From a virus (Duplodnaviria; Heunggongvirae; Uroviricota; Caudoviricetes), in IMG/VR virus record IMGVR_UViG_2778261033_000015: DNA of 39,669 nucleotides; one strand, given 5' to 3'. Of this stretch, positions 39,422 to 39,592 are shown piece by piece. Within the stretch, counting starts at the first letter, position 1. Every line of letters starts with the position of its first letter. Both the position numbers and the translations under genes were made by a program. Below the pieces are notes generated by a model. The model had not been told where the DNA came from. It was given only the letters and a program-made list of their open reading frames with translations, and searched no databases.

Positions 39422-39592
39422 GTATCAAAAGTTTTGCCGATTTTAGAATAAACGATTAATTATTGCACAATCGGTATCAAATAGACTTTAAGCGCTCATC
39501 CAGACATCACCTGTTTTATTTCAGTATCTTACAGGTGATTTCACCTCCTTTCACTAAAACCCTCGTTGGTATCAAATGATTCACCTGGTTAC
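39422..39592. repeat. Left-end (attL-side) subterminal repeats
   Basis: GTATCAAA (reverse complement of TTTGATAC) at 39422-39429, 39474-39481, 39569-39576, interleaved with CACCTG / CAGGTGA motifs at 39507-39512, 39532-39538, 39541-39546 and 39583-39588. Confidence 0.5.

Follow-up and report, generated by a model that had tools for sequence, protein, structure and literature searches.

In this study, we propose that the repeated TTTGATAC motifs at both ends of a Mu-like E. coli O157 prophage are very probably six transposase-binding sites, as judged from comparison with the ends of related phages. The prophage lies in a stretch of 39,669 nucleotides, the whole of which is called the window here. 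The predicted binding by the transposase is well supported because a sister lineage that carries TTCAAGATA has swapped the core and a helix-turn-helix segment of about 60 transposase residues together. As a joint reading, we consider it likely that the window holds a complete Sp18-type prophage, that its ends represent the cis-acting sites of transposition and that an inner module with CACCTG elements is most likely a packaging (pac) signal.

Organization and boundaries of the prophage

The complete Sp18-type Mu-like transposable prophage occupies positions 302..39593 of the window, and the sequence of the window matches E. coli O157 strain AR-0430 with 100% identity. The gene order is Mu-like (repressor, ner, A, B, gam, mor, lysis, terminase, head, tail, an invertible tail-fibre segment, com and mom), with the repressor (c) end at the right side of the window, corresponding to the left end of Mu, and the com/mom end at the left side, corresponding to the right end of Mu. 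The host locus split by the prophage is an HNH endonuclease gene adjoining terminase genes of a lambdoid or Stx-type prophage (flanks 1-301 and 39598-39669), and its reading frame is restored by removing the element together with one GGAG copy. Elements of the Sp18 type account for about 284 insertions in 233 of the 5426 complete E. coli genomes, located in many different genes, in line with the varied targets of Mu-type phages. Other copies of the element disrupt head-closure, portal and small-terminase genes of other prophages. Sp18 itself has been reported to be intact, with DNA that is packaged efficiently (PMC2669165).

We fixed the termini from eight independent insertions (the window, L003, L004, L005, RM9245, ERL06-2497, Sakai and the L056/L157 prophage), across which the constant sequence runs from T302 to A39593. 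The element had initially been annotated as ending at 39592; this boundary has to be moved outward to 39593, as the A flanking it is constant in every independent insertion. All eight insertions are bordered by exact 4-bp direct repeats (GGAG, GGGG, TGAC, CGAG, TGAT, CTAT, TTTA and TCCT), in a comparison that included the sequence pairs L014/L083, L084/L085, L086/L087 and L056/L157. A 5-bp duplication, as in Mu, fits none of the eight insertions, and a 4-bp duplication is annotated in GenBank LC727881 as well.

Read inward, the c terminus is 5'-TGTAACC in the window and TATAACC in several relatives, while the com/mom terminus is 5'-TATAGCG in all sequences seen. The 5'-TG...CA-3' termini of Mu are thus not found at both ends: the com/mom end always starts with TA, unlike the TG of Mu, and the c end with TG or TA depending on the relative, so the conserved 3'-terminal CA of Mu has not been retained here. 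The relatives compared for the terminal dinucleotide (302-303 and 39592-39593 in the window) were L006, L009, L026, L032 and L038. Together, the TA at the right terminus and the 4-bp duplication suggest that chemistry and geometry may differ from those of Mu.

The transposase A gene encodes a distant homologue of MuA. A full-length profile alignment to MuA (hhalign) is colinear (probability 98.6%, E 5.8e-16, 27% identity, 598 columns), the identity to MuA being only 22-27% overall, and this alignment and the Pfam matches (Table 1) identify the protein as a DDE transposase of the MuA family. Relatives with the same end sequences have unrelated genes at the position of the repressor. Transposase residues 1-70 (38110-38319, the HTH_Tnp_Mu_1 region) share 39-60% identity among proteins that are otherwise 97-100% identical, and this N-terminal variation tracks the repressor type, as it does between Mu and D108. 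Elsewhere in the element, a tandem repeat of the hexamer AAGCCG (about 9 copies, 18171-18230) lies inside a HI1506-related gene of the head region, the length of which varies among relatives.

Table 1. Features of the prophage ends and of associated genes. Positions refer to the window unless they are counted from the c terminus; mean pairwise identities are from the gapless alignment of 15 c ends.
Feature	Position	Strand	Remarks
Target-site duplication, left copy GGAG	298..301		same 4 bases after the opposite terminus
Right (com/mom-proximal) end, equivalent to Mu attR	302..384	+	terminus 5'-TATAGCGCGG; cores R1, R2, R3
R1 core	319-327	+	TTTGATACY match
R2 core	341-349	+	TTTGATACY match
R3 core	376-384	+	TTTGATACY match
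Internal TTTGATACC copy in the major head protein gene	19080..19088	-	TTTGATACY match
Small terminase subunit, gp27 family	25963..26544	-	would read the spacer module (proposed); shares 57% identity with Mu gp27 (annotated terminase small subunit)
MuB-like transposition ATPase, adjoining the transposase	35225..36157	-	Pfam Phage-MuB_C 2.5e-25, AAA_22 4e-18
Internal TTTGATACC copy, A-B intergenic	36173..36181	+	TTTGATACY match; just upstream of the B ribosome-binding site
Hairpin with T-run after the A stop codon, 13 pairs	36192..36221	+	terminator-like on the strand antisense to the early operon
Transposase A, 696 aa, distant MuA homologue	36229..38319	-	Pfam Mu-transpos_C 1.5e-17, HTH_Tnp_Mu_1 6.9e-6
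Transposase segment co-varying with the end core, residues ~133-193	37741..37923	-	clean cassette between near-identical flanks (alignment)
Repressor (c-equivalent), transcribed toward the left (c-proximal) end	38737..39321	+	RefSeq CDS WP_001056416.1; weak HTH hits
Left (c-proximal) end, equivalent to Mu attL	39421..39593	-	terminus 5'-TGTAACC; cores L1, L2, L3
L3 core	39421-39429	-	TTTGATACY match
L2 core	39473-39481	-	TTTGATACY match
Conserved L1-L2 spacer module, candidate pac	39506..39567		positions 27-88 from the c terminus, 62 bp
9-bp inverted repeat ATCACCTGT / ACAGGTGAT	39506-39514 / 39531-39539		inside the spacer module
TCACCTG	39507-39513	+	exact match
TCACCTG	39532-39538	-	exact match
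Palindrome AGGTGATTTCACCT	39533-39546		overlaps the inverted repeat
TCACCTC, 5/6 copy	39541-39547		near match
L1 core	39568-39576	-	TTTGATACY match
Outer half of L1, AGGTGAATCA read inward	39577..39586	-	holds the terminal CAGGTGA copy; AGGTRAWTYA outside the L1 core in all lineages
TCACCTG	39581-39587	+	exact match; terminal copy
Target-site duplication, right copy GGAG	39594..39597		same 4 bases as 298..301
c end, terminal segment	1-17 from c terminus		95% mean pairwise identity
c end, L1 core	18-26 from c terminus		97% mean pairwise identity
c end, spacer, outer part	27-88 from c terminus		97% mean pairwise identity (96.8%)
c end, spacer, inner part	89-112 from c terminus		55% mean pairwise identity
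c end, L2 core	113-121 from c terminus		95% mean pairwise identity
c end, L2-L3 spacer	122-164 from c terminus		68% mean pairwise identity
c end, L3 core	165-173 from c terminus		98.5% mean pairwise identity
c end, stretch inside L3	174-200 from c terminus		55% mean pairwise identity

Three bipartite sites at each end

The 9-bp core TTTGATACY has eight exact matches in the window where 0.44 are expected, a number reached in none of 100 shuffled sequences. Six of them are terminal, three per end and all facing inward, and at both ends the first core lies 17 nt in from the terminus. Start-to-start distances between successive cores are 22 and 35 bp at the com/mom end, compared to 95 and 52 bp at the c end. 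The initial annotation had already described three inward repeats per end with a different spacing, and this description holds with small corrections of the coordinates.

This layout is that of Mu in most respects. Counted from the terminus, GATAC starts at 21, 116 and 168 at the c end and at 21, 43 and 78 at the com/mom end, whereas the CGAAA of the MuA sites starts at 22, 127 and 167 (L1, L2, L3) and at 22 and 44 (R1, R2), with an inverted R3 at 57. Both elements thus have three sites per end, a nearly equal distance of the first site from the terminus, 22 bp between R1 and R2 and a long L1-L2 spacer with two distal sites. Given these near-matching positions, the architecture is that of Mu, except that R3 is direct here and located 35 bp from R2. 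The recognition sequence is different, however, as Mu carries a 22-mer containing CGAAA(A/G) instead of the TTTGATACY core.

To follow the conservation of the sites, 15 distinct c ends with a spacer of the CACCTG type were aligned without gaps and the mean pairwise identity was calculated per segment (Table 1). In this alignment of related prophage ends, a check proposed in the initial annotation, the cores stand out as conserved islands with 95-98% identity versus 55-68% in neighbouring spacers. Where prophages carry another repressor gene, their homology to the window sets in at 39418, exactly at L3. At the com/mom end of a diverged relative (L011) the three cores and their 22/35 spacing are kept and the spacers differ, and essentially the same com/mom pattern is present in a Sodalis contig (L278), with 36 bp between R2 and R3, and in the Yersinia phage vB_YpM_5 (L015).

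Directly outside each core, a second and weaker element is found that is common to both core lineages, e.g., AGGTGAATCA, AGGTAAATTA, CGGCGAATTA, ACGAAAAATTA and TATGGAAATCA; the sites are therefore bipartite. Their outer half, roughly GGnRAWTYA, is shared across lineages, while the inner 9-bp core is lineage-specific. In addition to the outer half of L1 (Table 1), CGGCGAATTA, ACGAAAAATTA or TATGGAAATCA stand at the outer-half position of the other sites, whichever inner core the lineage carries. The outer half is weak at L2 and R2.

Joint exchange of the core and a transposase segment

Relatives with a transposase that is 72-76% identical to that of the window (L053, L054, L056, L058 and L062) lack TTTGATAC and carry three copies of TTCAAGATA at the c end, the first of which is located at position 18 in L053, L056, L058 and L062. 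In the com/mom ends of L157 and L167, TTCAAGATA is present at 18, 40 and 75, which are the core positions of the window with the same 22/35 spacing. Scans of the whole collection for pairs of cores gave almost only chance matches in AT-rich genomes, and only L157, L167 and L278 were useful.

Between the transposases of the two core groups, a single segment differs sharply. Residues 131-190 are 63-100% identical to the window protein in TTTGATAC phages and 27-32% identical in TTCAAGATA phages, versus 60-63% and 77-84% identity in the flanking bins in both core groups. The co-varying segment (residues ~133-193, Table 1) aligns to MuA ~119-165 in the end-binding domain, within an alignment of 22-27% identity; Pfam models cover MuA 8-142 and 149-256. 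This part of MuA, the counterpart of the cassette, is presumably subdomain I-beta. A single-sequence AlphaFold model of transposase residues 61-280 reached a pLDDT of 49 and is unusable. Based on the alignments, a helix-turn-helix within transposase residues ~133-193 probably recognizes the inner core, and we regard the co-variation of core and cassette as the strongest indication that the transposase reads the cores. The number of independent lineages behind this co-variation is small (for the cores, two types plus Mu; for the spacers, two types with a known terminase), so that common descent or mosaic linkage could give the appearance of a functional link. The interpretation of TTTGATACY as a transposase site, put forward in the initial annotation, is supported from four independent sides, all comparative: the Mu-like positions, the conserved cores, the occurrence of TTCAAGATA at the same positions and the matching swap of the transposase segment.

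A conserved module between L1 and L2

The four CACCTG/CAGGTGA elements and the palindrome that the initial annotation assigned to the left end are indeed present and restricted to the c end, as there are no CACCTG elements at the com/mom end. The terminal copy is not a separate element, however, since it coincides with the outer half of L1. As a cluster in a single window the counts are unremarkable (eight TCACCTG versus 4.6 expected over the whole window; 26 different 7-mers with three copies inside 95 bp versus about six in shuffled sequences), and the reality of the elements thus rests on their conservation.

This conservation delimits a 62-bp module. Among the 15 distinct ends, 54 of the 62 columns are invariant and the mean pairwise identity is 96.8%, compared to 55% in the next 24 bp. 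When folded as single-stranded DNA, the inverted repeat inside the module has a z of -3.2. A search of the c end for promoters, terminators and known RNAs found none, and there are no ORFs. The module is 97% conserved despite at least five unrelated repressors, two ner variants and variable transposase N-termini, and is therefore not an operator, nor is it an enhancer paired with the N-terminal domain. We therefore rejected CACCTG elements as repressor operators, as the same module occurs with at least five unrelated repressors and two Ner variants and the c-ner intergenic region contains no TCACCTG, and as an enhancer for the transposase N-terminal domain, as residues 1-70 vary (39-60% identity) next to an identical spacer.

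The spacer can be exchanged independently of the transposase. A Mu-type spacer, 71-76% identical to that of Mu, is present in L046, L056 and vB_YpM_5, all of which have Sp18-like transposases, so the CACCTG module is not required by this transposase lineage. The Mu-like spacer (up to 76%, CCGGGAGGA..GGATTA..CGGGAT.TGATGGGAT) is combined with TTTGATACT cores in L046/L049 and vB_YpM_5 and with TTCAAGATA cores in L053/L058. The spacer follows the small terminase instead: in L046 and L056 this protein and Mu gp27 are 100% identical, that of vB_YpM_5 shows the same 57% identity to the window protein as Mu gp27 does, and in contigs carrying a CACCTG spacer the small terminase is of the Sp18 type (96-100% identity). 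The Mu spacer sequence is thus conserved in phages that share the small terminase of Mu but not its transposase. Spacer type goes with small-terminase type in two classes; a third spacer type (L062) is known from one short contig, and the contigs with the third small-terminase class end before the c end. The transposase C-terminus and the B gene of L046 and L056 also look Mu-like. As L046, L056 and vB_YpM_5 may be Mu with a replaced transposase and replaced sites, an association of the spacer with the terminase would be equivalent to an association of the spacer with the rest of Mu.

The pac site of Mu has reportedly been mapped between L1 and L2. The module of the Sp18-type phages is located between L1 and L2 at the c end too, with no counterpart at the com/mom end. 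Because the spacer type tracks the small terminase and not the transposase, and given the reported position in Mu, the module is a candidate pac signal read by the small terminase, a role to which we give an even chance by analogy and which would explain why the module is found at the c end only. Compared to Mu pac, the candidate module of the Sp18 type is unrelated in sequence, with inverted copies of AGGTGA/TCACCT instead of the CCGGGAGGA...GGGAT repeats of Mu.

Two other explanations of the spacer deserve consideration. The first one assigns it to the transposition machinery, either as orphan outer half-sites or a decayed extra transposase site, or as a bend directed by the sequence, or a site for a host factor, in place of the non-specific bending by HU between L1 and L2. 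It is in line with the location of the module between two predicted transposase sites and with AGGTGAAATCA (48-58 from the terminus), which resembles the outer half AGGTGAATCA of L1 and is followed by the degenerate core TAAGATACT; moreover, the L1-L2 spacer of Mu is the place where HU acts (PMC3145075). Yet L046 and vB_YpM_5 share the transposase lineage, the outer half and the TTTGATAC core and have the Mu spacer without the CACCTG module, the few substitutions in the module hit the degenerate GATAC, and neither the spacer nor the cores contain a full match to the IHF consensus. We therefore judge both forms of this explanation unlikely.

The second explanation, to which we attach a slightly lower probability still, is that the terminal ~88 bp are conserved by recent descent and recombination only and that the CACCTG elements as such are without function; the end of the element would then be the sole homology anchor for the exchange of immunity modules. 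All ends of the CACCTG type indeed come from close relatives (transposase 92-100% identical), the CACCTG cluster is not significant by count and compensatory changes are absent from the inverted repeat. Within this very set, however, the next 24 bp are only 55% and the L2-L3 spacer only 68% identical, so descent alone does not hold the DNA of the end constant, and the boundary of conservation is sharp and located inside the non-coding end. The candidate pac function remains our preferred reading of the module.

For the cores, it is highly improbable that TTTGATACY is bound by a host factor or by some other phage protein rather than by the transposase: its reverse complement TATCAAA does hold the WATCAA core of the IHF consensus, and two of the TTTGATACY copies reach 12 of 13 positions, but a match to the full consensus is found in none of them, the conserved C(C/T) falls outside it, the positions agree with those of MuA sites, and a host-factor site would not swap to TTCAAGATA in phages of the same hosts alongside one transposase segment.

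Internal copies and other repeats

Two copies of the core are internal. The one between A and B had been placed at 36175-36183; it exists, but its position is 36173-36181. It is absent or altered in the close relatives L019, L038 and L042 (A 92-98% identical), and TTCAAGATA phages have no TTCAAGATA at the A-B position. A regulatory transposase site was considered for this copy and rejected, as it is not conserved even in close relatives; from these comparisons, the copy is probably a non-functional chance occurrence. The second copy, inside the major head protein gene, had been overlooked and is probably due to chance as well. The hairpin with a T-run noted beside the A-B copy in the initial annotation is real. 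At its position, relatives have a different stem sequence (e.g., ACAGTCCG...CGGACTGT), and the combination of different stems with the same place suggests that a hairpin after A is a conserved structure.

Two further sets of repeats were observed. Just inside L3, three GCTTAAAA-like repeats are present at 39381-39412, and similar YTTMAAAA repeats are present at the corresponding position of Mu (CTTCAAAAAACGTTCAAAAC) and of every other lineage examined. In one immunity type (L059 525-636; L062 2545-2669), the region between c and ner contains ATTTGATAT/ATATCAAA repeats that resemble the att core TTTGATAC and are probably operators.

Relation to known Mu-type ends

Mu-type ends are already known, and those described here are such ends with a different recognition sequence. 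Besides the architecture of the sites, the element shares with Mu a transposase of the MuA family, a MuB-like ATPase and insertion at many different sites, and, as in Mu versus D108, the N-terminal domain of its transposase (residues 1-70) is modular and matched to the immunity region. Unlike in Mu and D108, a second module, residues ~133-193, swaps here together with the att cores. The left-end-only element between L1 and L2 is a further likeness, given the reported position of Mu pac. Sp18 of E. coli O157:H7 Sakai belongs to the same element family, with ends that are identical over the terminal 131 bp (mom) and 176 bp (c), but has another repressor gene and another insertion site (sorM). 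In the literature searched we found no description of the end sites of Sp18.

By analogy with Mu, the following model can be drawn. Each end would present three bipartite sites to the MuA-family transposase, with a common outer half and a 9-bp inner core that is specific for the lineage. Transposase subunits bound at these sites would pair the ends into a transpososome, a host protein would bend the long L1-L2 spacer, and the 3' ends would be cut and subsequently joined to the target. The CAGGTGA elements would not act as extra transposase sites, the terminal copy being the outer half of L1 and the inner copies being part of the 62-bp candidate pac module.

More tentatively, and with a somewhat less than even chance in our estimation, the ends may be built of three independently exchangeable recognition modules, each with its protein partner, in a branch of the MuA family that has a 4-bp stagger and a 3'-TA end. 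The 9-bp att core would pair with the helix-turn-helix cassette of ~60 residues, TTTGATACY and TTCAAGATA representing orthogonal pairs in an otherwise identical scaffold. The pac module in the L1-L2 spacer would pair with the small terminase, and the operator region with both the repressor and the N-terminal domain of the transposase.

In summary, the natural swap of cassette and att core, the candidate pac module, the 4-bp duplication and the TA terminus go somewhat beyond what is known of Mu-type ends. Among the literature found, this is the first explicit map of the cis-acting ends of a Mu-like prophage that moves in Shiga-toxin-producing E. coli, where it disrupts genes, including those of Stx prophages. 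With the exact termini and the site motifs at hand, insertions of this kind can be located precisely in genome sequences. The two naturally occurring cores with the matching 60-residue cassette would provide a ready system to study or engineer the end specificity of MuA-type transposases, and two textbook features of Mu have natural exceptions here in the duplication of 4 bp and the TA terminus.
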